A DNA stretch of 64,000 nt from Desulfobacula sp. (GTDB lineage Bacteria; Desulfobacterota; Desulfobacteria; Desulfobacterales; Desulfobacteraceae), in the NCBI GenBank assembly GCA_020048635.1, contig JAIFMF010000116.1:1825-65824 (forward strand). The letters are read 5' to 3'. This document shows positions 43,544 through 62,003 of this stretch, in pieces. The first letter of the stretch is position 1; each line of letters opens with the position of its first letter. The position numbers and the translations under genes were made by a program. Below the pieces are notes generated by a model. That model saw only the letters and a program-made list of their open reading frames with translations, had not been told where the DNA came from and searched no databases.

Positions 43544-44139
43544 TGAAACGGTTTCAAATGGCCTTTCTTATTTTTTTTACGGTATCGGTTTTCTTACCGG
43601 CCGACAATTGTTTTGCATCGGCTGTTCAGGATCAATTGAAGGGCACTATTAATAAAATTATCGGAATTCTAAAGGACCCCTCTTTAAAAGGGGATGCATC
43701 CATTAAACAAAGAAGAGAAAATCTTCGTAAAGCGGTTTCTGAAAGATTCAGTTTTGAAAAAATGTCCCAGTTGTGCCTTGGTAAGCACTGGAAGGACAGG
43801 ACGGATGATGAAAAAAAAGTGTTTATCGAATTGTTTGGAAGACTTCTCGAGGAAACCTATATTTCCAAGATCGAGGGGTATACCAATGAAAAAGTCGAAT
43901 ATTTAAAAGAATCCATTACGGATAAAAAAGCTCAGGTCAATACCCGGATTATCACTGAGAAAATTGAAATTCCCATTGATTATCGGTTATACCAGGAAAA
44001 GGACGGGTCATGGATGGTCTATGATCTGATCATCGAAGGCGTCAGTCTTGTGGGAAATTACCGTTCCCAGTTTGATGAGATTCTTCAAAGGGATAATTAT
44101 AAAAAGCTCATTGATGAGCTGAAAAAGAAAATCGAATAG
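43540..44139 (+). CDS. mlaC: MlaC/Ttg2D phospholipid-binding periplasmic protein
   Basis: RFSFEKMSQLCLGKHW, F..LLEETY, IPIDYRL, W.VYDLIIEGVSLVGNYRSQF. Confidence 0.9.
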   Translation: MMKRFQMAFLIFFTVSVFLPADNCFASAVQDQLKGTINKIIGILKDPSLKGDASIKQRRENLRKAVSERFSFEKMSQLCLGKHWKDRTDDEKKVFIELFGRLLEETYISKIEGYTNEKVEYLKESITDKKAQVNTRIITEKIEIPIDYRLYQEKDGSWMVYDLIIEGVSLVGNYRSQFDEILQRDNYKKLIDELKKKIE

Positions 44140-44162: not shown

Positions 44163-44897
44163 TTACAGCCCTGTTATTTGTGCCAGCACAACAGATATAT
44201 TATCTTTTCCTCCACCGGCATTAGCCTCATTTATAAGATTCTCAGTCTTTGTTCGAATGTCTGAACTTGACTTCTCCAGGTGCTTTTTAATCAAGTCATC
44301 CGCTACCATATCGGTAAGACCGTCTGAGCAAAGCAGAAAAAGATCGCCAGGGAAGATAGTTCCTTTTAATATATCCAGGGCTGGATTTTTTTTAATTCCC
44401 ACTGCTCTTAAAATAACATTCTTAAATGAATGTCTGACAGCTTCTTCCTGAGTTATCAACCCTTGGGTCAACTGCTCCTGTACAAGGGAATGATCCGTGG
44501 TCAACTGCTTTAAAGTCCCCTTTCGGAGGCGGTATGTCCGGCTGTCACCCATGTGACCGAGGATAAAACAGTTGTCATGGAACGCCAGCAATTCTGCCGT
44601 GCATCCCATGCCTTCGCAGCCTGCAGTGCTTTCTGCATATTCTAAAATACGATCATTGGCAATCTGAAAAGTTTTTTGAACCCGATCAGATTCCCCATCC
44701 TCTGAATTTTGTATTATGGAAAAAATCTCCTGGGCGGTCTCGGCAAATATCCGGCTTGCAATATCGCCTGCTGCAGTCCCCCCAATACCATCGGCAACAA
44801 GGCAAAATTCCTTATCCTCATTGACCAGTATGGTGTCTTCATTTTTCTTTCTACAAAGCCCCTGGTCTGTTTTTCCAAACAAAAAGAATCTGTTCAT
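44163..44897 (-). CDS. PP2C-type Ser/Thr phosphatase (PppA/Stp1-like)
   Basis: TDQG..RKKNED, VADGIGG, GMGCT, HMGDSRTY, LTTDHS, LLCSDGL, GGKDNISV. Confidence 0.93.
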   Translation of the reverse strand: MNRFFLFGKTDQGLCRKKNEDTILVNEDKEFCLVADGIGGTAAGDIASRIFAETAQEIFSIIQNSEDGESDRVQKTFQIANDRILEYAESTAGCEGMGCTAELLAFHDNCFILGHMGDSRTYRLRKGTLKQLTTDHSLVQEQLTQGLITQEEAVRHSFKNVILRAVGIKKNPALDILKGTIFPGDLFLLCSDGLTDMVADDLIKKHLEKSSSDIRTKTENLINEANAGGGKDNISVVLAQITGL

Positions 44898-44898
44898 T

Positions 44899-46509
44899 TT
44901 ATTTGAATCTCTCCATCATGAATTCTACCAGATTGGATTCATCATATGCGATGTTCAAGCGTTTTCTGAGTTTTGTCAGATCATCATATATTTCTTTGCC
45001 GGACTTGTATCTCATGTCTTTATTTTTTTCGAGACATTTCATTACAATATCATTCAGCTCGTCCGGTATATCCGGTCTTAATTCAATAATAGGCGGGATG
45101 ATGAATTGGGGAATAGTGCTTAAGGCTTCTAATTCGTTGTTGAAATGATATAATTTTTTTCCGGAAAGTATTTCATAAAAGATGATACCCAGGGCATAAA
45201 AATCCGACTGGTGATCGGTCTCTTTCCCCAAAGCCTGCTCAGGTGAAAGATAGGATAATTTCCCCTTGATCACACCTGCCTGAGTAAAACTGGGTTCGGA
45301 CCGGGCCTTGGAAATTCCAAAATCGCTTATCTTAACCTCGCCCTTAAAGGATATCAGCATATTCTGAGGACTGATATCCCGATGAACAATATTCAACGGT
45401 TCCTGCGTGTCCTCACTTTTTTTTGTATGAGAGTAGTAAAGGCCTGCACTGATTTTCTGGATTAAAAATATTGAAAGGTCAACAGGCAGGCCTTGTTTTT
45501 CATGGGCCATGATCTCCGCAAGATTTTTTCCTTCAACATATTCCATTGCAATAAAACTTGCATTATTTATTTTGATCAAATCAAAGATTTGTACAATGTT
45601 TGGGTGTTGAAGCATTGCTGCAAGTCTAGCTTCTCGTACAAACATATCAACAAAACTCTGATTCTGGGATAGATGAGGAAGTATTTTTTTTATGGCAACG
45701 GTTCTTCTGAAACCATCTTGCCGAATGTGGTCCGCAAGGTACAATTCAGCCATTCCGCCCTGGGCAAGTTTTTTTGTCAACAGATAAGGGCCGACTTTAT
45801 TGGTTTTTTCGAATTCTTCAAGTGCTCTCGCTCTTTTTTTTCTGATCACCCTGTCGGTAACCACTAAAGCGCCCATAAAGATAATACAGTTTACTATCCA
45901 CAAACTCAAAAGCAGGGCATTGTATTTTTCAAGCGGCATATCCAGTTCCCGGGCATCCAGTCCAAAAATAAGCTTACCTATTTTTATCTGAGAAAAAACA
46001 ATGTCGCTTGTGAAGCTGATGATGATGCTTTTATGATACTCTCTTCGTTCTATTGAAAGAGTATCTGTTGTTTTTAATATTTCAACACTGTTGGAAGGCA
46101 TGTATTGATCACCAATAGCGTTCGGGTCACTATGGGCAATGATAACCCCATCATGATCCAGAATGGCAGTAAAAACCGGCTTGTTTTTTTTCCCCAGCTC
46201 TCCTATTGCAACATTTAAAGTGAGAATATCTTTTTCCAGTAAAGGGGCATTGATTTTTTCACCCATATTATTTGCAGCCTGAATTCCGTTGTTAAAAAAA
46301 TCATTCCGGTATTTTTCCTGGAAATTTCGAATAAACCCGTGGCCAGCCAAAGACAGCAGAAAAAAAGCCACCAGGTAAATCAATAGAGGGTTTTTATTTC
46401 TGCTGATGAATTCATTTTTCATCATTCTTCCTATAAAACCGGCAGGCAGTCCGGTCGCCACTTTTTTGGCCCATGTGATGGTTGTTGATACTTTTTCACC
46501 GACAGACAT
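44899..46509 (-). CDS. Membrane Ser/Thr protein kinase: TM, extracytoplasmic sensor, TM, C-terminal kinase
   Basis: LAQGGMAELY, VAIKKI, HRDISPQN, DFG, GKLSYLSPEQ, all intact. Confidence 0.92.
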   Translation of the reverse strand: MSVGEKVSTTITWAKKVATGLPAGFIGRMMKNEFISRNKNPLLIYLVAFFLLSLAGHGFIRNFQEKYRNDFFNNGIQAANNMGEKINAPLLEKDILTLNVAIGELGKKNKPVFTAILDHDGVIIAHSDPNAIGDQYMPSNSVEILKTTDTLSIERREYHKSIIISFTSDIVFSQIKIGKLIFGLDARELDMPLEKYNALLLSLWIVNCIIFMGALVVTDRVIRKKRARALEEFEKTNKVGPYLLTKKLAQGGMAELYLADHIRQDGFRRTVAIKKILPHLSQNQSFVDMFVREARLAAMLQHPNIVQIFDLIKINNASFIAMEYVEGKNLAEIMAHEKQGLPVDLSIFLIQKISAGLYYSHTKKSEDTQEPLNIVHRDISPQNMLISFKGEVKISDFGISKARSEPSFTQAGVIKGKLSYLSPEQALGKETDHQSDFYALGIIFYEILSGKKLYHFNNELEALSTIPQFIIPPIIELRPDIPDELNDIVMKCLEKNKDMRYKSGKEIYDDLTKLRKRLNIAYDESNLVEFMMERFK

Positions 46510-46542
46510 AATTGTTCTCCAATAAACAATACAATAATATTT

Positions 46543-47400
46543 TTAATCAGCCGCAATTTTATTTATTATTTTAGTGCACTGGGCGACCATAAGTCTTTTA
46601 AGCCAACTTAATTCTTCAACCTTTGATAGATCTGAGAGTAACACGGAAGGATTGACCCCGGGATACTGCTTAAGAACAGAAAATTTTTCAAGATCAGGTG
46701 TACGAAACCGGTTCTTAGAAAAATTTTCATGTTTGCCGCACAACGGGCAAAAAAATTCAGTATCCTCAGAATCAGGAGACACAGGGTTTTGGGGAGACTT
46801 GAAATTTGTCGCCAGGATTGGCCACCGGAGGCGAAAATCCTTGTAATTCGTAATTCCAAAGAAAAGAACAATGACCAGTAGACTCAGCCCTGCAAACAGG
46901 AAAAAATTGTGTTGTAATTGGCCGATATTTCCCGCAGAAAGTGATATCAAAACTTCTCCGACCTTGGTACTGGAAAAAGTTACTTCAGAAGAAAAAGTCA
47001 TTCCCCGCTGGTTATTCGGCTGGGTAACCCGCCAGTAGTGAACATCATCCAGAACGCCCGATTTCTTTCTATTGAGGGTGAAAAATTGCTCTTGATCAGT
47101 GTAGGCAATGATTTTATTTTTATGATCAATAATCGATGCAAAAACTACCTCAGGTTTTTCTGTAATCTTGTCTATGAGTCTGCTCAGACGATTTATATCT
47201 CTCTCCAAAAGAAGCAGCCCTGACTGGCTGGAAATATCTTTTGATATGGAAACCCCTGTCTTGATTAACGCCTGCCTGCGATTCCTCTCCCAGATATTGA
47301 TGAAGATATAAATAAGCAAACAGAGAACAAACCACGCAACCAGAATCAGTATGATTTTTTTTCCAGAAAGTTGAAAAGAACTTTTTTCGCTTGTCATCAT
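46543..47400 (-). CDS. Membrane protein with a Cache-like extracytoplasmic domain paralogous to the adjacent kinase, plus a cytoplasmic CxxC tail
   Basis: LLLERDINRL...VFASIIDHKNKIIAYTD...FSSEVTFSSTKVG aligns with the kinase LLEKDILTL...VFTAILDHDGVIIAHSD...FTSDIVFSQIKIG; FFCPLCG. Confidence 0.7.
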   Translation of the reverse strand: MMTSEKSSFQLSGKKIILILVAWFVLCLLIYIFINIWERNRRQALIKTGVSISKDISSQSGLLLLERDINRLSRLIDKITEKPEVVFASIIDHKNKIIAYTDQEQFFTLNRKKSGVLDDVHYWRVTQPNNQRGMTFSSEVTFSSTKVGEVLISLSAGNIGQLQHNFFLFAGLSLLVIVLFFGITNYKDFRLRWPILATNFKSPQNPVSPDSEDTEFFCPLCGKHENFSKNRFRTPDLEKFSVLKQYPGVNPSVLLSDLSKVEELSWLKRLMVAQCTKIINKIAAD

Positions 47401-47678
47401 AGAAAATTGTATCCTCCCGGAAGTGCCTGGATCATGACGCCTGAATGATAATGGCGTCGGTTTATAATCAAAATGGAAAAAATGATAAAAAATTGTCAAT
47501 GGATTTGACCTATATAAAAAAAGTCTTTATGTCAAGCTGCTTATCAAAATTTAGAATAATTTGACCAGAGAAAATAGAACAAGACTTTTTTAACAAAATA
47601 TCCTTGCATTAAAATGGGATATGATATTAAAAAAGGACATAAAACTTTTAATAAATTTTCTTTAAGGCTGTGGGAGAA

Positions 47679-48929
47679 ATGAAAATGAATAAAATACTCA
47701 CCGTAACAATTTTATTGACATTGTTGATTTCCGGATGTGTTGAAACTTCTGTAAAGCCGGAGCCCCCACCTCAAGAATTAAGTCTTACGCAGCAACACAT
47801 GATAAAAGGAGAAACTTTAGAGAGAGAAAACCGATTGCTCAACGCCCTGGAACAATATCGGCTGGCCCTTTCCCTTGATCCTGGAAATGAGCAGGCAATT
47901 CAACATGAAAAAAGGGTTTCGTCTTTGCTCTGGGAGCAAGCGCAGCCGTATTATATGAAAGGATTGGAATTAGAACGTAAAGGACAATATGAACCCGCTA
48001 AATCAGAGTATTTAAATGCCCTGCAGATCTGGCCGGAGCATGAAGAGGTAAAAAAAAGAGTAGCGCTTCTTGAGGAAAAGGGAAAAGAACCGGATTATAT
48101 AGTTCATATACTGACATCGGGTGAACTTCTTTCGAAACTTGGAAAGGTCTACTATGGAGATACGAAGAAGTATACACTTATTACAGAATTTAATTCTATT
48201 AAAGATGTTACAAGGGTCCGAGAAGGAGAAAAATTGAAAATACCGATTATCGCAGGTGTTTCTCTCCAGGATCTTAAAAAGAAACAAGAAGAGTATCTCA
48301 ATTTGAAAAAAAATGAGGCTTCGGCGGCCAAAATCAAAAAGGCCAATGATGAGATAACCGCAACGTCAGGCGAAACGGCTGCTGAGCCTGAAACGATGGT
48401 GCCATCCGCCGAAAAAGCCATAGTACCCAATAAAGATGCTGTAAAAGGGATCACTCAGGAGAATATTTTGCCATCTTCTAAGAGTGATCCCTATGTGCAG
48501 GGAATAGAGCTGTTTAACCAGAAAAAATTCTCAGCATCCATTCCCCTGTTTCTGTCGGCAGCAAAAGATAATCCAGGCAATGAAACTATCCGTGATTATC
48601 TTTTCAAGGCGCATTTTCAACAGGCATTGGTATTGTTTAATGCAGAGGACTACCTGTCGGCAAAAGACAATTTTGAATCAGCGCTCAAATATGACAAAAA
48701 ATGTGAAAAATGTTCGGATTATATTGAAAAATGTGAAACGACCTATAAGGAGAAGCACTATAATCTGGGCATCCATTATTTTGGGAAGGAGCAATTGAAA
48801 AAGGCAATTGAAGAATGGGAACTGGTGAAAAAGATTGACCCTGGTTATAAAGAGCTGGCCCCGAATATGCAAAAAGCGGAAATGCTGCTTAAAAGACTTG
48901 AAAGTATAAAAAAGAGTAAGTCTGAATGA
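47679..48929 (+). CDS. Lipoprotein with TPR repeats and a LysM domain
   Basis: Lipobox LISGC; TPRs (AL.LDPGNEQA; AI..WE.V..IDP.Y); LysM HILTSGELLSKLGKVYYGD...I.EFN.I......GEKLKIP. Confidence 0.82.
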   Translation: MKMNKILTVTILLTLLISGCVETSVKPEPPPQELSLTQQHMIKGETLERENRLLNALEQYRLALSLDPGNEQAIQHEKRVSSLLWEQAQPYYMKGLELERKGQYEPAKSEYLNALQIWPEHEEVKKRVALLEEKGKEPDYIVHILTSGELLSKLGKVYYGDTKKYTLITEFNSIKDVTRVREGEKLKIPIIAGVSLQDLKKKQEEYLNLKKNEASAAKIKKANDEITATSGETAAEPETMVPSAEKAIVPNKDAVKGITQENILPSSKSDPYVQGIELFNQKKFSASIPLFLSAAKDNPGNETIRDYLFKAHFQQALVLFNAEDYLSAKDNFESALKYDKKCEKCSDYIEKCETTYKEKHYNLGIHYFGKEQLKKAIEEWELVKKIDPGYKELAPNMQKAEMLLKRLESIKKSKSE

Positions 48930-49801
48930 AACAGCCTGCAAAAATAATTGTCCAGCTTGTACATATCCATGGCGCCCTGAAAGGAAAAATTCAGGGGTTT
49001 TCCGGTCATGAAATCACCATTGGCCGCAATTCATCCTGTGATCTTCAGTTTCCCCAGGATCTTGTTGTTATCTCACGAAAGCATGCCACCATTGTCAGGG
49101 AAGGAAACCGATTTAAAATAGTCGACCAGAGCACCAATGGAACTTTTGTCAATGGCGAAAGGATAACCGAGGCCTATTTAAAAAACGGTGATGTGATCTT
49201 TTTCACCCAGGACGGACCCAAGGTCAGTTTTCTGACCCAGGTTGATGAGACATCTGATATCCTGACGCCTTCATTTCCCCTGCCGGAGCTTGATACTGAT
49301 AAAACGCCCATTCAATCAGTGCTCCATCAGCCGGTGACTGAACCCCAGGCAGTACCTCCACAATCCGTGTATCACATCGAAACCACCAAAGTTCCCCTGA
49401 TAGTCCAATATGGGCCTGTTCTGAAAGCCTTTAATGAACTTCCCATTACCCTTGGGTCTGATAATACCTGCGATCTGGTATTGGATCACCCTTCATTGGC
49501 CGGTCAGCATGTTCAAATTTTTTTCAGCCAGGGGAGCTACAGGGTTAAGGATCTTACCGGTCGCAACCCGGTTCTGATAAACAGCCAGCCGATCATTTCT
49601 CCTTCCCCTTTAATGCCTGGCGATCAGCTTTTCCTTACATCCAATGGGCCTGCGTTTCATTTTCTGGAAGGCGGTCGTATGGCTGAAATAAACATGCCGC
49701 AAAAAGAGGCGGCCAGTGACAGTGGAAGCACAGCACCCCGAAAAAGCGAGGAGCCTTCGAAGAAGAAAAGTGGTTCCTTGTTTAAAAAGCTTTTTCGGTA
49801 A
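48926..49801 (+). CDS. Protein with two FHA domains
   Basis: FHA1: IGRNSSCD, ISRKHA, DQSTNGTFVNG; FHA2 degenerate: LGSD..CDL, GQHV, DL..RNPV.IN; Pro-rich linker. Confidence 0.88.
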   Translation: MKQPAKIIVQLVHIHGALKGKIQGFSGHEITIGRNSSCDLQFPQDLVVISRKHATIVREGNRFKIVDQSTNGTFVNGERITEAYLKNGDVIFFTQDGPKVSFLTQVDETSDILTPSFPLPELDTDKTPIQSVLHQPVTEPQAVPPQSVYHIETTKVPLIVQYGPVLKAFNELPITLGSDNTCDLVLDHPSLAGQHVQIFFSQGSYRVKDLTGRNPVLINSQPIISPSPLMPGDQLFLTSNGPAFHFLEGGRMAEINMPQKEAASDSGSTAPRKSEEPSKKKSGSLFKKLFR

Positions 49802-49831: not shown

Positions 49832-50962
49832 ATGATGCGCATTATTCAGATGGACGAAATCATAAAGATCAGTAAAGAACGCGCAGATAGAGAAGTCGCC
49901 TTGAGTAAAAATATTTATAACATCCTGAATGGCCCCCGGTGGCTCCCGAAAATTACTGAATTTGTTGCTACCGCCACTTACCAGCTACTCTATCACGGAT
50001 TTGATGAGGCCAAATTGAATGCTGCCATGGCAGAGGAGCCTCGCCTTGAAGTCTGGGGTAAGGGAGTCGGCAACGATTATATAGAGAAGACAAGATACCT
50101 TTGCGAGCATCGAAAGCTCCTGAATGCAGGAGACTGCTCGGATCTTATACGGCTTTTTGGAAGTTTGGTTGAGGATAAAAAACACCTTCTATCCAATAGC
50201 CAACTGGGCTATGTTGATAGAAAGAGGTTGGAAAAGCGTGTTGGAGGCGAGGAGGCTCACTGGGGAGCCTCACGGGCCAGAGGCAAGGCAGGAGAAAAAG
50301 CAAGTGAACCCCGACATGTCATTGCCGGCAGAAATAAAATGCTGGAGCAAAGGCGGCTGAAAGCTTTCAGCGGGATAACACTCACAAGATTAAAAAGAGA
50401 AAGCACGGTGAGGAAAATAGATGTCGCATTTGGATTGCCGGCTGGGTGTGATATTTCCGGAACCACGGCAGACTCTATTTTTTTTGTGGAGCTGATGAGA
50501 GATTTCATCGCCGGCGATGTCCTGGCAAGCATGAACATTACGGACAAGGATATTAAAACCATCCAATTGCTCCCCCTTGCCACCATGGTTTCCCAGGCTC
50601 ATCACACTGTTCTGGAATGCGCCTTGACCCTGACGTTGAACAGATATATGAAATACCATGCTGGCTATTATGACACGTTGATTCCCATTGGCGGTTGCGA
50701 TAGTGAAATCGAAAATATCCTGAAAGATGCCGGTAGAAGAGCTGCTGAAAGCCGATTAAATATTTTGTGTTATTTGAGTCCCAAATTAAAGTTTGAAGCA
50801 TATCAAATGATGACATATGATGAAATTGAATTGTTTAAAAAGATTGCACAGATGACCCATGACACCCTGTTGACATGGAAGGCCAGCCGGTCTCCCCTTC
50901 TTCAGGAAGAAGCGATGGCCATCACCGGAAAGGCATATCTATACCATGTAATAAAACAATAG
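49832..50962 (+). CDS. Hypothetical cytoplasmic protein; candidate T6SS effector
   Basis: No signal peptide or TM; lies directly upstream of vgrG; motifs DISGTT and HHTVLE. Confidence 0.6.
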   Translation: MMRIIQMDEIIKISKERADREVALSKNIYNILNGPRWLPKITEFVATATYQLLYHGFDEAKLNAAMAEEPRLEVWGKGVGNDYIEKTRYLCEHRKLLNAGDCSDLIRLFGSLVEDKKHLLSNSQLGYVDRKRLEKRVGGEEAHWGASRARGKAGEKASEPRHVIAGRNKMLEQRRLKAFSGITLTRLKRESTVRKIDVAFGLPAGCDISGTTADSIFFVELMRDFIAGDVLASMNITDKDIKTIQLLPLATMVSQAHHTVLECALTLTLNRYMKYHAGYYDTLIPIGGCDSEIENILKDAGRRAAESRLNILCYLSPKLKFEAYQMMTYDEIELFKKIAQMTHDTLLTWKASRSPLLQEEAMAITGKAYLYHVIKQ

Positions 50963-51003: not shown

Positions 51004-52908
51004 ATGTTAACCCAGGAAAATAAACTTTTTTCAATCAAAACACCCCTTGGCAAAGATGTTCTGCTGCTCGCCCGGTTTGGCGGCCAGGAGGTCCTGTCGG
51101 AAATTTTTCAGTTTGATATGGATTTGTTTTCCGAACATCCCTCCATTCCGTTTGAAGATATCATCGGAAAAAATGTCACGGTTTCTATTCTCCTGGCAGA
51201 TGGCAGTAAACGGTTTTTTAATGGTCTGATATCGCGTTTCAGCCGGGAATGTGCCTGCAATGAGCCTGGAGGAAGCCCCTCTTTTTTTGATTATTCCGCC
51301 ACACTGGTGCCCTGGACCTGGCTTTTGACCCGGACCTCTGATTCCCGGATATTCCAGAACCTTTCGGTGCCGGATATTGTTGAAAAAATTTTTCATGAAA
51401 AAGAGTTTTCGGATTTCAAATTCAACCTGACTGCCGCTTATCAACCAAGAGAATATACCGTTCAATACCGGGAAACGGATTTTGACTTTATTTCAAGGCT
51501 GCTGGAAGAAGAAGGGATCTATTATTTTTTTATGCACGAGGAGGGTAAACATACCCTGGTGATGGCTGATCATTCCGGAGCGAATGAGCCCTGTCGGATG
51601 CAGGAATCCGCTAAATTCAAATTGAGTGGCGGCGAGTATTTCAACCGTGGGGATCAGATTGACAGCCTTAAGATGGCAAAAGAGATCCAGGCAGGTAAAT
51701 ATACGTTAAATGATTATAATTTTAACACCCCCAATACGGATCTGAAGGTCACCACAAATACCACAATTGTCCTTGGGCCGGGTGAACGGGAAAAATATGA
51801 CTATCCCGGAGGATATTCTAAAATAGACACCGGAGACACATTAACCAAGATTCGGATGGAGCAGGAAGAATGTCGTATCACCACTTTGAGCGGTACCAGT
51901 GATTGCCGGGCCTTTGCCAGCGGCTATCGTTACAAACTGGAAGACTGTCCACAGGACGCTTGGAATAACCAGGACTATCTTTTGACCCGTATCAGACATA
52001 GGGCTGACCAGTCAGCAACCTATTTATCCGGCGTATCCGCATCAGGAAAAGGGGACATCTATAAGAACGATTTTGATTGTATTGCCCATGGGATACCCTT
52101 CAGACCCCTGCGGCGCACACCGAAACCTGTCGTTAAAGGGGTTCAGACGGCATTTGTTGTGGGTCCTAAAGGGGACGAAATCTATACCGATCCGCATGGA
52201 CGGGTGAAGGTCCAATTCCACTGGGATCGAGAGGGCCAGCACGATGGAAACAGCTCCTGCTGGCTGCGGGTCAGTCAATCCATGGCAGGTAACGGCTGGG
52301 GGGCAATGGTTCTGCCCAGGGTTGGACATGAAGTCATTGTCGAGTTCATCGAAGGTAATCCGGATCGGCCCATCATCACAGGTCAGGTGTATCACGCCAT
52401 CAACCGGCCACCCTATCAATTATCCGATGAAAAAACCAAGAGCACGTTCAAATCAAACAGTTCTCCCGGCGGCGGCGGGTTCAACGAATTCCGCTTTGAG
52501 GACAAAAAGGGTCAAGAGCAGATTTTCATCCATGCCGAGAAAAATCAGGATATCCGGATAAAAAACGATCAATGCGAATGGGTTGGCAATGAACGTCATT
52601 TGACCGTGGTGGGCGATCAACTTGAGAAAACCGGTGGAGATAAGCATATCACGATCATAGGGGACCGCAACGAAAGAATAGGGATGAAATATGTTCTTGA
52701 TGCGGGAGAGGAAATCCATCTGAAAGGGGGGGTAAAGGTCATCGTCGAGTCAAGCATGCAGATATCTCTCAAGGTCGGCGGCAATTTCATTGATATCCTA
52801 CCCTCCGGTATCTCCATCCAGGGGGTTATGGTGAATATCAACAGTGGCGGCTCACCTGGATCAGGTTCAGGATCATCGCCAAAGATGCCAAAGGAGCCCT
52901 CCACATGA
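51004..52908 (+). CDS. vgrG: T6SS spike protein VgrG (TssI), without a C-terminal effector extension
   Basis: VQYRETDFDFISRLLEEEGIYYFF, GRVKVQFHWDR, WLRVSQ..AG..WG...LPRVGHEV.V.F.EGNPDRP, IHAEKN. Confidence 0.96.
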   Translation: MLTQENKLFSIKTPLGKDVLLLARFGGQEVLSEIFQFDMDLFSEHPSIPFEDIIGKNVTVSILLADGSKRFFNGLISRFSRECACNEPGGSPSFFDYSATLVPWTWLLTRTSDSRIFQNLSVPDIVEKIFHEKEFSDFKFNLTAAYQPREYTVQYRETDFDFISRLLEEEGIYYFFMHEEGKHTLVMADHSGANEPCRMQESAKFKLSGGEYFNRGDQIDSLKMAKEIQAGKYTLNDYNFNTPNTDLKVTTNTTIVLGPGEREKYDYPGGYSKIDTGDTLTKIRMEQEECRITTLSGTSDCRAFASGYRYKLEDCPQDAWNNQDYLLTRIRHRADQSATYLSGVSASGKGDIYKNDFDCIAHGIPFRPLRRTPKPVVKGVQTAFVVGPKGDEIYTDPHGRVKVQFHWDREGQHDGNSSCWLRVSQSMAGNGWGAMVLPRVGHEVIVEFIEGNPDRPIITGQVYHAINRPPYQLSDEKTKSTFKSNSSPGGGGFNEFRFEDKKGQEQIFIHAEKNQDIRIKNDQCEWVGNERHLTVVGDQLEKTGGDKHITIIGDRNERIGMKYVLDAGEEIHLKGGVKVIVESSMQISLKVGGNFIDILPSGISIQGVMVNINSGGSPGSGSGSSPKMPKEPST

Positions 52909-53362: not shown

Positions 53363-56011
53363 TTAAATGAAAAGATATTTAAAACCTTCTCCATCCATAT
53401 CCACTTCAATCTTTTTGACAGGCTCTCCCTTGGCCATCATTGAGAGCATCTCACGACTCATTTCCGGAAGCAGGGTATTGGTCAGAATATGGTCCACATT
53501 CCTTGCCCCGCTATCCACTTCTGTGCAGCGCTGAGCAATGGCATCAATAACCGTCTCTTCATAAACAAATTCAACCTGCCGGTTTTCTTTCATCCTTTTT
53601 TTAATTTTGTCCAATTTAAGCTGAATGATGCGCTTCATATTGTCATCCGTAATAGGAAAATAGGGAACAATTTTCATACGGCCGAGAAAAGCTGGTTTAA
53701 AATGGGCTTGAAGGTCCGGGCGTAGCATCTCTGTAAGTGTTTCAGGGTCAGGAAGGCTTTGTTTATCTCTGCATAGTTTCATGATCAGATCGGTTCCCAG
53801 ATTTGAGGTGAGAATGATCAAGGTGTTTTTAAAATCAATGACACGTCCCTCTCCGTCTTCCATCATGCCCTTGTCAAAAACCTGGTAGAACATCTCTGTC
53901 ACGTCGGGATGCGCTTTTTCAACCTCATCCAGAAGGACAACACTGTAAGGTCTTCTCCTGACCGCTTCCGTAAGCACGCCGCCTTCGCCGTATCCCACAT
54001 ATCCCGGCGGAGAGCCTTTGAGACTCGAAACGGTATGAGCCTCCTGGTATTCAGACATGTTGATGGTGATCATGTTTTGTTCACCACCATAGAGAAGCTC
54101 TGAAAGGGCAAGAGCAGTTTCGGTTTTTCCAACCCCGCTGGGACCGACCAGCATGAATACACCCGTGGGTTTGGAAGGATCTTCAATTCCTGCATGGGCA
54201 ATCTGAATGACTTGTTCAATGGCTTTAAGCCCGTAATCCTGACCGATAATTCGCTGTTTAAGCTGATCGCTTAACGTCAGTACGGTATCAATCTCATCGG
54301 AGAGCATGCTGCCGGTGGGGATTCCAGTCCACCCGGAGATAACACTGGAAATGGTGTCTGAATCCACTTCAATATGAACCAGAGGATCATCTTTCTGTCG
54401 TTCGATGAGTTCTGATTCAAGTTTCATCAGCTCAGTCTGCAGTGCTTCAAGTCCATCACCGGGATTTTCTTCTTCGACATGAAGGTCTTGTATCTTTTTG
54501 TGAAGATCCCGGATTTTTCCAGCTATCTCCATCTCTTTTTCCCATTGATCGGTAAGCCGGGAAAGAGTTTTTTGGGCCATCTCTTTTTCTTTTAGAATGA
54601 CAGTCATTCTTTCCTCATGGTTTTTCCCAAGGGCAGTTTCCTTTTTCAAAATAGCCATCTCACGGTTCAATTGATCAATCTGTCTGGATGCATCTTCAAC
54701 AGAAGGGGGGTTGGTTGTCAGCCCGATTGCAATTCTGGCACAGGCCGTATCCAATACACTGACGGCCTTGTCAGGAAGCTGCCGACCTGAGATATATCTT
54801 GAAGATAGACGGACGGTTTCTTTTAATGCCTCATCAGTAATCATAACCTGATGGTGTTTTTCCAGAAACGGCGCAATGGCCCTCATCATTACCAGGGCCT
54901 TTTCTTCGTCAGGTTCTTCGATCTTTACTACCTGGAAGCGTCTGGCCATGGCCGCATCTTTTTCAAAATATTTTTTATACTCTGCCCAGGTGGTGGCGGC
55001 AATCGTCCGCAGTTCACCCCTGGCAAGCGCAGGTTTCAATAGATTTGCAGCATCCCCTGATCCGGCAGCCCCGCCTGCGCCGATCAGGGTATGGGCTTCG
55101 TCAATAAATAGGATAATCGGCACAGGAGAGGCCTTCACCTCATTGATGACGGATTTTAACCGCTCTTCAAATTCACCTTTAATCCCTGCTCCGGCCTGGA
55201 GAAGACCCAGATCCAGGGTATGAATGGCAACATTTCTCAAGGCGGGCGGGACATCCCCCTGTGCAATTCTCAAGGCAAATCCTTCCACAACGGCTGTTTT
55301 CCCAACTCCGGCTTCACCGGTAAGAATGGGGTTGTTCTGCCTGCGACGAATCAGAATATCCACCATCTGTCGGATCTCAAAATCCCGGCCCAAAACAGGA
55401 TCTATTTCTCCATTTTGCGCTTTTTCGGTCAGGTTGACTGTATACAAAGCAAGGGCCTGAGACTTTCCAGCACCTGGCGTCATGGTTTTTTCCGCTTTCA
55501 GAGATCGGCTGTCCCCGATGCGCGCTTCCTCTTGTTCAGCCGATCCGGAGGTCAGATCAAAAAAAGAGGCTTTCAGAGTTTCGAGAGAAATCTTTTTGAA
55601 AAGAGAGGATGTTGAATAAAGCGCCCTTGAGGATTCCTGGCCAGATAGCAGGGCAAGAAGAATATGACCGGACCGAACAGACGGGGCGGCAAATTCAATG
55701 GATGCAAAAAGCCAGGCTTCTTTGATCATATTGGGGATTCTGGGGGAAAGGGCAGGGGTTCGTGCATTTCCTGTTTTAAAGGTCTCCATGACATCTGTGA
55801 GATCCCTGATAAGGTGGGACTCATTGATTTCAAAATAGGTCAGTATTTTTTTAAAATCCGTATTCTGAATATCTAGGAGTTTTAAGAAAAAATGCTCCAG
55901 TTCAACATCATACTGGGTATGTGAAAGGCAGAGCCCGGCCGCTGATTCCAGGCTTTTTTTACAGATCGTATTCAGTTTTCCGATAAGAGATTTAAGGTTT
56001 GATACAGGCAT
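53363..56011 (-). CDS. tssH: T6SS AAA+ ATPase ClpV
   Basis: Clp-N domain, DPVLGRD.EIRQ..DIL.RRRQNNPIL.GEAGVGKT, second Walker A GPSGVGKT, SGARNV; ATG at 56011. Confidence 0.96.
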   Translation of the reverse strand: MPVSNLKSLIGKLNTICKKSLESAAGLCLSHTQYDVELEHFFLKLLDIQNTDFKKILTYFEINESHLIRDLTDVMETFKTGNARTPALSPRIPNMIKEAWLFASIEFAAPSVRSGHILLALLSGQESSRALYSTSSLFKKISLETLKASFFDLTSGSAEQEEARIGDSRSLKAEKTMTPGAGKSQALALYTVNLTEKAQNGEIDPVLGRDFEIRQMVDILIRRRQNNPILTGEAGVGKTAVVEGFALRIAQGDVPPALRNVAIHTLDLGLLQAGAGIKGEFEERLKSVINEVKASPVPIILFIDEAHTLIGAGGAAGSGDAANLLKPALARGELRTIAATTWAEYKKYFEKDAAMARRFQVVKIEEPDEEKALVMMRAIAPFLEKHHQVMITDEALKETVRLSSRYISGRQLPDKAVSVLDTACARIAIGLTTNPPSVEDASRQIDQLNREMAILKKETALGKNHEERMTVILKEKEMAQKTLSRLTDQWEKEMEIAGKIRDLHKKIQDLHVEEENPGDGLEALQTELMKLESELIERQKDDPLVHIEVDSDTISSVISGWTGIPTGSMLSDEIDTVLTLSDQLKQRIIGQDYGLKAIEQVIQIAHAGIEDPSKPTGVFMLVGPSGVGKTETALALSELLYGGEQNMITINMSEYQEAHTVSSLKGSPPGYVGYGEGGVLTEAVRRRPYSVVLLDEVEKAHPDVTEMFYQVFDKGMMEDGEGRVIDFKNTLIILTSNLGTDLIMKLCRDKQSLPDPETLTEMLRPDLQAHFKPAFLGRMKIVPYFPITDDNMKRIIQLKLDKIKKRMKENRQVEFVYEETVIDAIAQRCTEVDSGARNVDHILTNTLLPEMSREMLSMMAKGEPVKKIEVDMDGEGFKYLFI

Positions 56012-56027
56012 ATCCACTCCTTTGAGA

Positions 56028-57086
56028 TTAAACTGTTTTTCGGGTTGATCGCTGCACATCCTGAAGATCAACTTCCTGAAACGTAATATATGGATCTTCG
56101 ATAAATGTGTATCCCGGACTGGATGCGAATGTGGTCCATCCGAGAAAAGTTGCGTCAGGACTTTTTTGGCCAAGGATACAGTTTGGCACATCTTCCTTTT
56201 TCAGAGATATTCTGATTTCAAATTCAAATTCTATTCCCACCATGTATCGGATTAAAGAGAAAACCGGGAGAAGCAGATCTCCCGTCGGCATGAATCGTTT
56301 ATAGATCTGATAGTCGGCAGGACCCAGGTTTACCCTGAATTTGGTCTGGCACTCCGTCACCTGGCTTCCGCAGACCGCATCTCCACCAAGGGTTGAATTG
56401 GCGCTGCCAAGGCGGGTCAAATCAGCGTCCTCAAAGGGGATTTCCCGCTCCACAAACTGGTCCACCTGGGTTCTTGTTCCTGAAAAATATTCGATGACCG
56501 CTTCAATGCTTGCTGCAGATGCCACGGGCAATGCGAGCAGGCCCGTGTAAAAACTGAGGGATTCCCTTGGAAGTCCCAGCATTCCCACCATTCCAGAGGT
56601 TCCAAGCCCTGAGAGGCTGAGAAGATATCGAGACAGACGGTCCCCGGCTCCGGGTGAGTAGTTTTCAGGGAACCGATGTTTTTTCCAGGCCAGATAAAAA
56701 AGGGAAATCAGTCTATGATGAAAGATATTGAGAAAATCTACAAAGGAATGATCCTTCTTCTTTTCTCTTTCTACGGCAAGTTCGTTGTACCAGTTGGGAA
56801 GAAGGCCAGAGGGACCGATCAGCCCCATAAAGGCCACTTCCATCTCCGTCCGGTTTTGATCACTGTTTTTTCTCAGACCGGAAATATCGCTGGCTGGAAA
56901 GGCAAATCCCGGCTTGACTGAAAAACGGACAGGCTCCTGGCCTGGCTCCAGAGTTTGACCCAGTTTTTTTTTGTCTGGGGCAAATTTTTCAACTAGCTCA
57001 ACAGCCTTGAAAAAAGAAAACTCATGGCATTTTTGATAGAGATCTTTTTCTATGCCAGTATCTGATTGCCGCTTCTCGGTGGCCAT
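56028..57086 (-). CDS. tssG: T6SS baseplate TssG
   Basis: FSFFKAV.L, FMGL.GPSG.LP.WY, F...FHHRL.SLFY.AW.K. Confidence 0.93.
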   Translation of the reverse strand: MATEKRQSDTGIEKDLYQKCHEFSFFKAVELVEKFAPDKKKLGQTLEPGQEPVRFSVKPGFAFPASDISGLRKNSDQNRTEMEVAFMGLIGPSGLLPNWYNELAVEREKKKDHSFVDFLNIFHHRLISLFYLAWKKHRFPENYSPGAGDRLSRYLLSLSGLGTSGMVGMLGLPRESLSFYTGLLALPVASAASIEAVIEYFSGTRTQVDQFVEREIPFEDADLTRLGSANSTLGGDAVCGSQVTECQTKFRVNLGPADYQIYKRFMPTGDLLLPVFSLIRYMVGIEFEFEIRISLKKEDVPNCILGQKSPDATFLGWTTFASSPGYTFIEDPYITFQEVDLQDVQRSTRKTV

Positions 57087-58852
57087 CTTTTGATGTCCTC
57101 TTTATTTTGAATCGTTTTTAAAACAAGCTGAGAAAATGAATTGATTGAAATATACTGGGCAAAAAACCGTTCGAGGACCGAAGCAAATAAATAGAATCCC
57201 GAACCCACAAATTTATCTTCATCCAGGGTAAGCGTTATCTCTATTCCCCGACAGAAAGACGATTTGATCCGTTTTGTAACATGACGGGAGTGCACAGACA
57301 CAATACCGTTGATCTGCTGTTTTGTGGGGGTTGAATTTTCAAAATCATAAAGCTTTAGAATTTCCTTTAATGCGTCTTCCCCACCTTCCACGATGGAGAT
57401 GTAATTGAGAGACAGGTGGGAAATAAGTCGCCACTGCAGGGCTCCCCCGAGAAAGGGGCGTTTTGTGGCCGTGGGTTTGATCAAGCAGGATATTTTTTCA
57501 ACAGGAGCGGCAAATTCCATGGTAAAATCTCCTTCTGCATCACCAAAGGGAAGCCGGGCCGGTAAATCTCTGTTGGTACAGGTCAGATGAAGGGTCAGAA
57601 TATCTGTTCCGGGATCGGTCGGGGTCATATTCAAATCAGAAAAAGACAGGTAAAGTTCTGACCCCTTATCGTCCTTCTTGCCTGACAGTCTGCGCTGAAC
57701 ATGCCAGAATATAGTGGCATCCTTTGAACCACCCTCTGAGAGATGGTGACGTATAGAATAAAAAGGCCTGTACTCTTTCACGGTTTTTCCGGAAACAGGT
57801 GCTGGGCTGACCTGGTCAATGCTATATACTTCCATTGCATGGGACCGCCTTAAATCAGGAGTCACCCGGTATTCTGTTTTTCGCTGTTCAATCCTCATGG
57901 GTTCGGCAATTTTTTTAAAAAGGTTTACGGCTGGAGCTGTGTTCAACTGAAATGTGTCCTGGTTCACAAGAATATCTTTTTTTAGGGATTTGTTCAGATG
58001 TATCTTTACGGTAAGCGATGTACCGATTTTCCTTGAATTCAATTTCTCAAATCCGGTCAAATCAAAAAAGAGAAATTTTTCTGGAAAGGTGAAATACTCA
58101 AAAAGCAGAAGATACCCTGGAAAAGATCGTTTGGAATATGGAAGCATTTTTTCATGGGGGTCAAACCCCACAGTGCGGATACAGCCCGGGTCAAGTGTGA
58201 TGATCTCAGCTTTGCCCTCTGGGTTGGTAAAGGCCATTTCCACATGGCAGACAGTATTAAAAATGAGTTCATACAATTTAAAGATATGCTGATGGGGACC
58301 ATTGAGAAAGAATCGGAGGAATGGGCATGAAACATCCCCAAAATCAATTCCATTGCAGGTCTGAAGCTCGATAACAAGGGTTTGAACCGCTTCTTTGACA
58401 TTCAGTCCTGGAGTATCAAGAAATGCGGACCGGACTGCAATCGGCCGGATGAATACGGGCTGACAAAGGGTAAATCGACAGGGGACACTCTTTACCGGTT
58501 TAGAAAAGAGAAGGGTTCCCTCCTGGATTTCAATCCCTTTTTCAGTAATGCTTTGATTTATGGGATCAAACCGCACCATGGTCATTGAGGGAATGGGATT
58601 GTTGTAATGGGGGTATGTGATCTCCATAAGGGATTCTGTGATTTCAGGAAAATCGTCATCCATCTTTTTATGAATTCTGCCACTGATAAAGGCAAAAGCT
58701 TCAATAAGCCTTTCAGTATGAGGATCTTCACATTTGTCTGGTTCCAGGAGAAGGCGGCCAGCAATTTTTGGATAATTTGCAGCAAATTCTGCCCCCATCT
58801 TCCGGATAAAGGTCAGTTCTCGTTCATAATAATTTAATAATCTGTCGTCCAT
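57050..58852 (-). CDS. tssF: T6SS baseplate TssF
   Basis: LL.YYEREL..IR..GAEFA..YPKIA.RL, DPHTERL.EAFA, YF.FPEKFLF, WRLISHLSLN. Confidence 0.95.
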   Translation of the reverse strand: MDDRLLNYYERELTFIRKMGAEFAANYPKIAGRLLLEPDKCEDPHTERLIEAFAFISGRIHKKMDDDFPEITESLMEITYPHYNNPIPSMTMVRFDPINQSITEKGIEIQEGTLLFSKPVKSVPCRFTLCQPVFIRPIAVRSAFLDTPGLNVKEAVQTLVIELQTCNGIDFGDVSCPFLRFFLNGPHQHIFKLYELIFNTVCHVEMAFTNPEGKAEIITLDPGCIRTVGFDPHEKMLPYSKRSFPGYLLLFEYFTFPEKFLFFDLTGFEKLNSRKIGTSLTVKIHLNKSLKKDILVNQDTFQLNTAPAVNLFKKIAEPMRIEQRKTEYRVTPDLRRSHAMEVYSIDQVSPAPVSGKTVKEYRPFYSIRHHLSEGGSKDATIFWHVQRRLSGKKDDKGSELYLSFSDLNMTPTDPGTDILTLHLTCTNRDLPARLPFGDAEGDFTMEFAAPVEKISCLIKPTATKRPFLGGALQWRLISHLSLNYISIVEGGEDALKEILKLYDFENSTPTKQQINGIVSVHSRHVTKRIKSSFCRGIEITLTLDEDKFVGSGFYLFASVLERFFAQYISINSFSQLVLKTIQNKEDIKRWPPRSGNQILA

Positions 58853-58875
58853 GGTTATTGGGTTTACTTTCTGTT

Positions 58876-59349
58876 CTATTTTAAGATGACATACTGACCC
58901 CGGTTCAGATCAAAAACAGTATCAAAGGAAACCGGTTCAGCCAGAGGCTCCACCATCAGGATGCCGGCGATCCTGAAAAATAACTGCCGCTTTTGGCCGG
59001 CCTGACTTTCCACCCGGACAATGGTTTTTTTCAGGCGCGGTTCAAATATGGAAATGATTTTTTCAATCTCCCGACATAATTTCTGTCTGACAAAGGAAGA
59101 TTCCGGGTTTTCCACAGTAAAGTCCCGAAGCCCGTATAAAAGAAAGGATTCCCTTGCCGCACCAAAGGAATCCGGTATTTCAACCGGGCTGCAACGGGTA
59201 TTGAGAAGATTCTCGATGTCCCTTACCACACTGTCCAATATCTGCTGTTCAGATATCACCTGATACCGGGCAGACTCATTGTTCTGTCCGGGTTCCATAT
59301 CGATGAGCCTGTCCAGTATCGATGCGGTAAGGTTGAAAGGATCATTCAT
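58876..59349 (-). CDS. tssE: T6SS baseplate TssE (gp25-like)
   Basis: SILDRLID, RD.E.LLNTR, YGL.D, FEPRL. Confidence 0.92.
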   Translation of the reverse strand: MNDPFNLTASILDRLIDMEPGQNNESARYQVISEQQILDSVVRDIENLLNTRCSPVEIPDSFGAARESFLLYGLRDFTVENPESSFVRQKLCREIEKIISIFEPRLKKTIVRVESQAGQKRQLFFRIAGILMVEPLAEPVSFDTVFDLNRGQYVILK

Positions 59350-59365
59350 ACAGGGTTAGAAGGCC

Positions 59366-59854
59366 TTATACGGCTTTATTCGCTTCAAGATCCCAGCCCG
59401 CCGGAACATTTCCAGCACTAGTTCCATCTGCTCGTTTTTGTTTGGTATAGGTCTGCTCGATCTTACCATAATTGAGTGAAATTGATTCAGTAGGCTCTCC
59501 TCCGCCTCCGCCGCCGACTGATACGGAAGTGATCACCACATTGGTCAATTTATATTCCATGTATTGTTCTTTATTTCCTCCGTACCTGTTCAGCGAAAGC
59601 AATACCTCAGTTATAGGCTTCCCAGAGGCACAGTATTTAAACAGGAGAGGTGAAGCACTGTCCATGGTTTTTACAATGCTTAAATCCTGGAAATCCGCCC
59701 TTGCCGAGGTGCCTCCCCCTACGGTTGAGGCGCTGGCAGAGGCCATCTGGGATACCCCCCAGCTAAAGGACAGAATTTCCATCCAGTCCTTGTGTTTGTC
59801 ATCCGTGCTTTCACCCTTGATGCCGTCAATCTTTAAAAAATTATCTGCTGCCAT
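59366..59854 (-). CDS. hcp: T6SS tube protein Hcp (H1-type)
   Basis: FLKIDGIKGES.D.KHKDW.EILSFSWG, K..D.ASP.L, E.ISLNYGKIE..Y, GWDL..NK. Confidence 0.96.
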   Translation of the reverse strand: MAADNFLKIDGIKGESTDDKHKDWMEILSFSWGVSQMASASASTVGGGTSARADFQDLSIVKTMDSASPLLFKYCASGKPITEVLLSLNRYGGNKEQYMEYKLTNVVITSVSVGGGGGGEPTESISLNYGKIEQTYTKQKRADGTSAGNVPAGWDLEANKAV

Positions 59855-59922
59855 TTTTTTCTCCTCTGATTTATTTTGTTTTGGCGCATGTTGCGCCTGT
59901 CTGCCTGTCTTGGGTTTTCAAA

Positions 59923-61419: not shown

Positions 61420-61453
61420 ATGGTCCCTCCTTTATATGATTGCGTGTTAACAG

Positions 61454-61960
61454 TTAATCTTTTTTTATTCCAGTTTCTCTGCCGAGTTTTTCAAGGGAAT
61501 CCGTACTGGAAATTATTTCCTGGAGCAGTTCGTCCAGCTTATCATTTCCATCCAGTTTATTCAGTAGGCCGGATAGTTTTTCCCTTGCTGCCATGAGCTT
61601 ACGGATGGGGTCAATCTGTTTTGCCACATTTTCAGGATGAAAATCTTCCAGGGCTTTAAACTTGAGTTCCACTGCCATGGCAGAATTTTCATCGGTCAGT
61701 TTGTTATCAACCCGAAAGGCAAGTCTAGGGTTCATTCCCTCGAGAACTTTGTTAAAATTATCCCGATCAATCTCAACCAGTTTTCTTTCTTTAAGCTTGG
61801 GTAAGGGTTTTTCCGGTTTCCCTGACAAATCCGCCAGAACCCCAACAACAAAAGGAATTTCCTTTTTTTCAATGCTGTCGCCGACTTCAACGTCATAGGT
61901 GATCTGAACCCTTGGGGATCTTACCCTGTCCAGGGTATGCTGCAGGCTTTCTTTTGCCAT
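61454..61960 (-). CDS. tssB: T6SS sheath small subunit TssB (VipA)
   Basis: RVR.PRVQITYDVE.G....K E.PFVVGVLADLSG, IDRDNF. Confidence 0.97.
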   Translation of the reverse strand: MAKESLQHTLDRVRSPRVQITYDVEVGDSIEKKEIPFVVGVLADLSGKPEKPLPKLKERKLVEIDRDNFNKVLEGMNPRLAFRVDNKLTDENSAMAVELKFKALEDFHPENVAKQIDPIRKLMAAREKLSGLLNKLDGNDKLDELLQEIISSTDSLEKLGRETGIKKD

Positions 61961-62003
61961 TTTTGCCTCCTTTGGTTATGTATGGTTGATTTTAATATTG
62001 TTA

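Follow-up and report, generated by a model that had tools for sequence, protein, structure and literature searches.

A putative threonine-phosphorylation module of non-canonical parts beside the type VI secretion genes of Desulfobacula

What could switch a Desulfobacula species' type VI secretion system (T6SS) on and off, if the TagQRST trigger proteins of Pseudomonas are not encoded with it? The question is raised by a stretch of 64,000 nucleotides, hereafter the window, from Desulfobacula sp. (assembly GCA_020048635.1, 3.69 Mb and 92% complete; contig JAIFMF010000116.1, C173:1825-65824). At 44163-49801 of the window, five genes in two divergent units adjoin a complete T6SS. The minus-strand unit encodes a kinase-less receptor with two transmembrane helices, a Ser/Thr kinase and a PP2C phosphatase, and the plus-strand unit a lipoprotein that has TPR and a weak LysM-like segment, followed by a protein with two FHA domains. 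We propose, with a probability of about 0.6 on the basis of sequences and models, that the sCache-bearing kinase and the PP2C set a phosphothreonine mark, the first FHA domain reads it, a TagH C-domain protein (TagH-C) and a 648-amino-acid (aa) protein named P0002 are engaged for assembly, and TagF would be a separate brake.

A first-pass annotation of the window had called the five genes and had the two units flanking the T6SS. All five are present, by profile matches and open reading frames (ORFs), and both units lie at one end of the T6SS, next to vgrG and clpV, with tagF at the opposite end. The five genes are these.

44163-44897, minus strand: PP2C Ser/Thr phosphatase (PppA/TagG analogue), 244 aa; PP2C_2 E 2e-14, NCBIfam Stp1/IreP PP2C 231.9 bits for a cut-off of 230
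44899-46509, minus strand: sensor Ser/Thr kinase, 536 aa; Pkinase at residues 244-502, E 9e-40, and a weak sCache_3_2 at 66-145
46543-47400, minus strand: kinase-less sCache receptor, about 285 aa; weak sCache_4; transmembrane helix, sCache, transmembrane helix, cytoplasmic tail of about 90 aa
47679-48929 (alternative start 47670), plus strand: TPR lipoprotein; TPR_2 E 1e-16, lipobox LLISGC
48926-49801, plus strand: two-FHA protein, 291 aa; FHA E 1e-34, two stretches

The kinase consists of a short cytoplasmic N-terminal tail, a transmembrane helix, a periplasmic sCache/PDC domain (about 61-197), a second transmembrane helix and a C-terminal Hanks kinase domain (244-502). This is not the PpkA architecture, in which an N-terminal kinase is followed by one transmembrane helix and a C-terminal periplasmic domain. 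Across 26 orthologues K274, E293, HRD376-378, N383, DFG396-398 and the activation-loop T409 are invariant, and so are many residues of the periplasmic sensor. The PP2C gene starts after a gap of 1 nucleotide from the kinase stop, and the phosphatase motifs RKKNED, DGIGG, GDSR, SDGL and KDN are all intact.

When 5.8 billion proteins are searched with the sensor region, the kinase family comprises 40 clusters with lengths of 532-539 aa, save one partial of 353 aa. Its named sources are all Desulfobacteraceae (Desulfobacula, Desulfospira, Desulfobacter) or a metagenome-assembled genome (MAG) of Desulfobacterales/Deltaproteobacteria. The N-terminal tail of the kinase (46470-46509, minus strand) contains a conserved Thr-rich stretch, EKKSTTITWAK, with K6 invariant and T12 kept at 90% or more. 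The stretch may be an autophosphorylation or FHA-docking site.

Is this gene set tied to the T6SS? We surveyed 151 genomes of the same family and found the kinase in 28. By counts that are not corrected for phylogeny, a T6SS sheath gene is present in 24 of the 28 kinase-positive against 25 of the 123 kinase-negative genomes, and P0002 in 24 against 3. The kinase lies 6-50 kb from tssC on a shared contig in at least 14 genomes, and 14.5 kb from it at this locus. The first-pass annotation had named an occurrence mostly away from T6SS loci as fatal to its idea of a T6SS-linked threonine-phosphorylation module. The survey does not show such an occurrence, and the gene set supports the idea. The receptor paralogue is directly upstream of the kinase in all 26 of the kinase-positive genomes where it is detected.

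The arrangement recurs in relatives. In Desulfospira and on a JGI metagenome contig, the receptor-kinase-PP2C unit is divergent from a LysM-deacetylase, a TPR/LysM lipoprotein and the two-FHA protein, after which comes hcp, a TssBC-like gene or vgrG. Desulfobacter curvatus has the divergent units without a two-FHA gene. In this species and a few others, the neighbours of P0002 and TagH-C are the genes for lipoprotein, receptor, kinase and PP2C; the T6SS core lies at another place and has its own canonical TagH. The kinase module detached from the T6SS core thus stays with P0002/TagH-C.

The two-FHA gene reaches further than the kinase, its family counting 687 clusters. We examined 25 full-length orthologues from Desulfobacterales, Syntrophobacteraceae, Syntrophaceae, Syntrophorhabdaceae, Geobacter, Nitrospirota and other MAGs. 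A PP2C gene (48-57% identity) adjoins the two-FHA gene, mostly divergently, in about 20 of these 25 loci, and a kinase gene is near it also in about 20. T6SS genes flank it in 15, and most of the other loci are short contigs.

In a Geobacter MAG, the two-FHA gene, P0002, TagH-C, tssJKLM and tagF form a single run. The operon of P0002, TagH-C, tssJKLM, tagF, (tagJ), tssA and tssB recurs in Ca. Methylomirabilis and on a metagenome contig, and a Syntrophobacteraceae MAG keeps the P0002 operon through tagF, followed by other genes. On the Methylomirabilis contig, PP2C is divergent from the two-FHA gene and is accompanied by a LysM-deacetylase, a PG_binding_1 protein, a kinase and the P0002-type T6SS. 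The module kinases of other lineages are PpkA-like in their order, being kinase-transmembrane-PEGA (L026) or kinase-TPR (Methylomirabilis), and their modules carry trypsin-like, LpoB/CsgG-like, PG_binding_1 and LysM-deacetylase envelope proteins.

Across these loci, the module keeps a conserved core of PP2C, the two-FHA protein, a kinase and P0002/TagH-C; in Desulfobacteraceae and Desulfosarcina, the kinase is of the sCache type and comes with the pseudo-receptor. The module tracks the P0002-type T6SS across Desulfobacterota, Nitrospirota and Methylomirabilota.

The same surveys bear on the main alternative for the module as a whole, namely that the genes serve envelope or cell-wall Ser/Thr signalling in general, in the manner of PknB/Stp1 or WalK, and merely neighbour the T6SS while their main targets lie elsewhere. 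PknB/Stk1 and Stp1 are indeed the best NCBIfam matches, WalK extracellular domains are the closest structures to the sensor, four genomes have the kinase without a sheath gene or P0002, and in the D. curvatus-type genomes the module is far from any T6SS core. However, even there it takes the T6SS accessory pair P0002/TagH-C along, the PP2C and two-FHA pair stands beside T6SS genes across phyla, and the Geobacter MAG joins the two-FHA gene to the P0002-TagH-C-tssJKLM run. Together with the proximity and the co-occurrence of the kinase with the P0002-type T6SS, these make a general pathway very improbable. By gene content and synteny, the module is very probably dedicated to the T6SS.

The T6SS itself resembles the H1 system of P. 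aeruginosa in the core order, with the fha position, tssJ-K-L-M-tagF and tssA-B-C-hcp-E-F-G-clpV. The minus-strand run clpV-tssG-F-E-hcp-tssC-B-A-tagF converges on a plus-strand pair, a 376-aa gene and vgrG. As the first-pass annotation had it, tagF is at the far end. Past the window end, tagF is followed by tssM, tssL, tssK, tssJ, a 243-aa TagH C-domain protein and the 648-aa P0002. TssK has one match in the whole genome, so this is its sole T6SS.

51004-52908, plus strand: VgrG; Phage_GPD E 6e-92, TIGR03361 634 bits; same direction as the lipoprotein and FHA genes
53363-63374, minus strand: T6SS core genes clpV, tssG, tssF, tssE, hcp, tssC, tssB and tssA; Pfam matches
63364-64161, running past the window end at 64000, minus strand: tagF; TagF_N E 2e-10, TIGR03373 44.7 bits for a cut-off of 41.2
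71016-72962 in window-equivalent numbering (L002:9841-11787), outside the window, minus strand: P0002, 648 aa, first gene of the tssJKLM operon

Where, then, is the Fha scaffold? In a single-chain TagH/Fha, an N-terminal FHA domain and a C-terminal T6SS_FHA_C domain occur together, and no protein of the genome combines them. Immediately upstream of tssJ, where fha canonically lies, is the 243-aa protein, which is all-helical and has no FHA domain. Its T6SS_FHA_C match is 21.5 bits here, five of six orthologues match (best E 1.8e-7), and a profile search of the PDB with it gave no meaningful match. The only FHA domains in the genome are the two of the 291-aa protein, which lacks T6SS_FHA_C. The FHA-less C-domain protein and P0002, both encoded beyond the window and so out of reach of the first-pass annotation, are where the locus really departs from the canonical pathway.

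The two-FHA protein is ordered as a canonical FHA1, a Pro-rich linker, a degenerate FHA2 and a basic amphipathic C-terminal tail. The phosphothreonine-pocket residues G33, R34, S50, R51, H53 and N71 of FHA1 are invariant among 14 orthologues. In the same orthologues, FHA2 is without the pocket Arg and Ser and both positions vary; therefore, it is probably not a phosphothreonine reader. The tail, KKxxSLFKKLF, is conserved and presumably resembles the membrane-targeting helix of MinD, which is a lead and not a test.

P0002 is conserved across phyla; in an even sample of 401 genomes from the phylum, 20 carry it, and these belong to at least 12 families. It has several CxxC pairs, and sequence searches of Pfam, NCBIfam and the PDB found no match for it. 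Its acidic low-complexity tail contains four copies of a motif, DD-L-x-[EK]-T-[VI]-[IV]-[LI]-S-P. Among 118 homologues, 115 have at least one copy and 111 have 2-6. The motif density in the tails is 2.27 per 100 aa, about 50-fold above that in shuffled tails (0.046), and the density in the protein body is 0.04. Of 433 copies, 431 have Thr at the central position and none has Ser. Among the ORFs of at least 80 aa in this genome, only P0002 has two or more copies.

A Thr-only motif with a hydrophobic residue at +3 fits the general picture of FHA ligands, which is no test of the role. In the GarA/OdhI-type systems, a Thr motif that is acidic and hydrophobic at +3 lies beside an FHA domain or in its partners, whereas here a separate protein carries 2-6 repeats of it and the motif persists in FHA-less genomes. 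The P0002 tail would be the best candidate for the phospho-target, a tentative choice made from the motif. The motif may also loosely resemble a TonB box.

The idea that the Thr motif is purely an FHA ligand was weakened by its persistence where neither an FHA domain nor this kinase is detected. The motif may thus act without phosphorylation. It may bind a partner in the unphosphorylated form, and the kinase would then add a layer of control only in those genomes that have it.

A second T6SS FHA protein of D. curvatus carries the motif EYDEEKTVIITP right behind its FHA domain. This is a 381-aa protein encoded beside a canonical TagH at the second T6SS locus (L096:8140-9285, minus strand). It has an FHA domain, the EEKTVIITP motif, a Pro-rich linker, a transmembrane helix and a TPR-like periplasmic end.

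What could the kinase sense? A BLASTP match (E 1e-13; 145 aa at 26% identity) shows the sensor regions of the receptor and the kinase to be paralogues. The receptor ORF extends to 47499 with a TTG start, and by orthologue alignment its true start is probably the ATG at 47400. In AlphaFold2 (AF2) models, the two sensor regions have a pLDDT of about 75-90 (73-91 in the kinase), and that of the kinase has a helix-helix-six-strand topology. A fold search with the full kinase model was swamped by PknB and Aurora kinase matches and is uninformative about the sensor.

The receptor model is matched by Foldseek to the WalK/YycG extracellular domain (TM-score 0.66-0.70), CitA (0.6-0.76), DctB and Tlp3. 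Both the sCache/PDC fold and the two transmembrane helices that flank it are found (best Foldseek E 4e-6, TM-score 0.6-0.76), and a homologous sensor in the Methylomirabilis module matches sCache_3_2 at E 1.4e-10. The Cache-like label of the first-pass annotation holds because of the PDB matches of the receptor model and this homologue. As in the receptor, the sCache (PDC) domain of WalK/YycG and CitA/DcuS sits between two transmembrane helices, but they signal through a histidine kinase, and here the domain is joined to a Hanks kinase or to a small tail with Cys residues. Sequence identity between the periplasmic domain of the receptor and the WalK/CitA structures is 11-15%; therefore, no ligand is transferable.

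In the receptor, C218, P219, C221, G222 and C275 are invariant. The tail (46543-46810, minus strand) thus has an invariant CPxCG and a third invariant Cys, besides a conserved EEL-W helix, with low AF2 confidence. In the Methylomirabilis module (L012:11700-12989, minus strand), the same sCache_3_2 type of sensor forms a fusion with an adenylate/guanylate cyclase domain. A cyclase gene is also at the module edge in D. curvatus (L007:1-1167).

Alternatively, the kinase is constitutive and there is no trigger pathway, with the sCache domain and the kinase-less paralogue serving only for localisation or dimerisation. PpkA is indeed reported as a constitutive T6SS activator in species without TagQRST (PMC12607579), and no ligand-binding residues are identifiable in the sensor here. 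However, the sensor is well conserved with its many invariant periplasmic residues, and the receptor paralogue is kept beside the kinase in the family genomes. Moreover, the fusion of the same sCache type to a cyclase in Methylomirabilis is typical of a ligand sensor reused with other outputs. Hence, we regard the constitutive kinase as quite improbable.

The other possible input is the lipoprotein. In it, TPR comes first, then a divergent LysM-like segment (about 135-192), and a low-complexity linker leads to more TPR. The first-pass annotation had it as a LysM-TPR lipoprotein. The TPR part stands, and the LysM part is marginal, with an NCBIfam model at E 1.3e-4 and no Pfam LysM match even for the isolated segment. 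The orthologues range from E 0.03-0.2 up to the Desulfosarcina protein, which has two clear Pfam LysM domains (E 3e-11).

In relatives, a polysaccharide deacetylase that is itself a lipoprotein heads the lipoprotein/FHA operon (L006:7829-8812, L007:7738-8751, L008:7787-8782, L012:10634-11722), and in Methylomirabilis it carries LysM. This deacetylase is absent from the whole genome here. LysM, polysaccharide-deacetylase and peptidoglycan-binding proteins accompany the module in relatives, so the cue may be wall-derived. We treat this origin of the signal as a doubtful possibility.

Instead of a signal input, the lipoprotein could be a structural, wall-remodelling or positioning accessory, as could the LysM-deacetylase and PG_binding_1 proteins of relatives, with the kinase, PP2C and FHA protein still regulating the T6SS. 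TagL/TagN/TagP, MltE and TagX, which anchor to or open peptidoglycan, and TssW, which positions, would be its analogues. A review lists peptidoglycan-binding and wall-remodelling accessory factors (PMC13584744), and TssW positions from the outer membrane. Proteins that bind or modify peptidoglycan accompany the module in several phyla, and the deacetylase is lost here with the remainder of the module unchanged. On the other side, the lipoprotein and two-FHA genes overlap by ATGA and so are translationally coupled, and in every Desulfobacteraceae locus seen, that of D. curvatus with no T6SS core nearby among them, the lipoprotein gene forms a divergent pair with the receptor-kinase operon. We consider the accessory role, the main rival reading of the lipoprotein, rather unlikely.

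The first-pass annotation had stressed that the pathway is rewired without TagQRST. Its observation is right for the window, and the 92%-complete genome, searched via the FGE-sulfatase domain of TagR, shows no tagQRST cluster. The genome has two FGE-sulfatase genes of the TagR type, one beside P-type ATPase, BrkB and MscS genes and the other beside XerD and ParA genes. Neither is near an ABC transporter, a kinase or the T6SS, and the ABC genes beyond the T6SS are of the ABC-2 type.

The reading of this absence as a rewiring is not supported as stated, since TagQRST is essentially a feature of the Pseudomonas H1 system and tagE/G/H pathways elsewhere lack it (PMC13584744, PMC12607579). According to a 2026 review, studies of TagQRST have been confined to Pseudomonas, tagE/G/H are found across diverse taxa, and in Serratia RtkS is used in its place (PMC13584744). 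Acidovorax uses the outer-membrane positioning factor TssW, and Fha phosphorylation drives condensates (PMC12607579). The absence of tagQRST is thus ordinary among T6SS phosphorylation pathways and is not the novelty.

Like the P. aeruginosa H1-T6SS, the present locus encodes a Hanks kinase, a PP2C, an FHA protein and TagF with the T6SS. This kinase-phosphatase-FHA-TagF logic is known, with a precedent for PpkA/PppA/Fha and TagF (PMC5995506). Unlike H1, the locus has no TagQRST, its kinase is inverted with sCache at the N-terminus and the kinase domain at the C-terminus, its Fha is split into the two-FHA and the FHA-less TagH-C proteins, and it has an extra 648-aa partner and a kinase-less receptor paralogue.

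Other pathways differ by lineage in the upstream input and the kinase substrate, and Fha is a phospho-dependent assembly scaffold. In Serratia marcescens (RtkS-PpkA-PppA-Fha), the periplasmic RtkS replaces TagQR. In Acidovorax citrulli (TssW-PpkA-Fha), the outer-membrane TssW does so. In Agrobacterium tumefaciens, PpkA phosphorylates TssL, Fha binds the phosphothreonine, and TagF and PppA are fused. Unlike the present system, these three have PpkA-type kinases and single-polypeptide Fha/TagH, and are without Cache-type sensors, a pseudo-receptor, a two-FHA protein or a P0002-like protein. A literature search on Desulfobacter, Geobacter and Deltaproteobacteria found no description of this gene set. 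As far as the searchable papers go, the sequence features that appear new are the inverted Cache-type kinase with its pseudo-receptor, the split TagH, the degenerate FHA2 and P0002 with its Thr repeats.

How might these parts work together? They would make a post-translational on/off switch of the single T6SS, a threonine-phosphorylation pathway of non-canonical parts. The sCache domains would read an envelope cue, and the receptor paralogue is probably a partner of the kinase, acting as co-receptor or damper. The kinase would autophosphorylate and then phosphorylate a T6SS-associated target. FHA1 of the two-FHA protein would bind the phosphothreonine, and the basic amphipathic tail may hold the protein at the membrane. 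FHA1 would thereby recruit or release the TagH-C/P0002 pair to start the assembly of the membrane complex and the baseplate. The PP2C would reset the switch, and TagF would be an independent brake.

Several observations weigh against this mechanism. The kinase occurs in the above four genomes with neither a sheath gene nor P0002, and two long two-FHA loci have no T6SS gene within 10 kb. Three P0002-positive genomes, one of them 96% complete, keep three motif copies each with FHA and this kinase undetected. The second FHA domain lacks residues for phosphothreonine binding. LysM is marginal in the present lipoprotein and the deacetylase of relatives is missing. Finally, a sensory role is not required, because PpkA is reported constitutive elsewhere without TagQRST (PMC12607579).

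The proposed switch can be extended to a more specific and more speculative form, which we think unlikely as a whole. A three-part scaffold would replace the single-chain Fha in anaerobic Desulfobacterota, Nitrospirota and Methylomirabilota. P0002 would offer a multivalent Thr array in its disordered tail, the two-FHA protein would be a membrane-tethered reader, and TagH-C would couple them to the machine. The sCache kinase would sense a wall-derived cue, and its phosphorylation would nucleate a multivalent, possibly condensate-like assembly site.

Some neighbouring features touch the module less directly. Pattern scans of the divergent region for sigma-70 promoters, terminators and sigma-54 sites found them no commoner than by chance. 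The one hairpin worth listing is weak, as the scan total is not above chance.

44105-44120, minus strand: terminator-like hairpin, 3′ of the PP2C gene

Between the two-FHA gene and vgrG, the 376-aa protein (49832-50962, plus strand) is without a family match. A fragment 35% identical to it adjoins tagF in another family genome (L097:1286-1741), so it looks T6SS-associated too and may be an effector or an adaptor. In many relatives (L008:3706-5244, minus strand; L014-L017, L022, L029, L034, L036), the two-FHA gene is followed by a gene for a fused TssB-TssC-like paralogue of about 510-540 aa. It scores 223 bits with TIGR03355, below the cut-off, and is additional to the normal tssBC. Neither this sheath paralogue nor a second T6SS kinase of the widespread PEGA type is present in the genome.

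A naturally split system bears on two questions, how Fha/TagH converts phosphorylation into T6SS assembly and how the kinase is activated outside Pseudomonas. The FHA reader, the TagH C-domain and the candidate multi-Thr docking tail are separate proteins; therefore, their functions can be tested one at a time. Few carriers have genetic systems, which limits the practical value. The little-studied T6SSs of strictly anaerobic lineages carry a conserved regulatory set of their own, with Cache-type sensors and wall-binding proteins.

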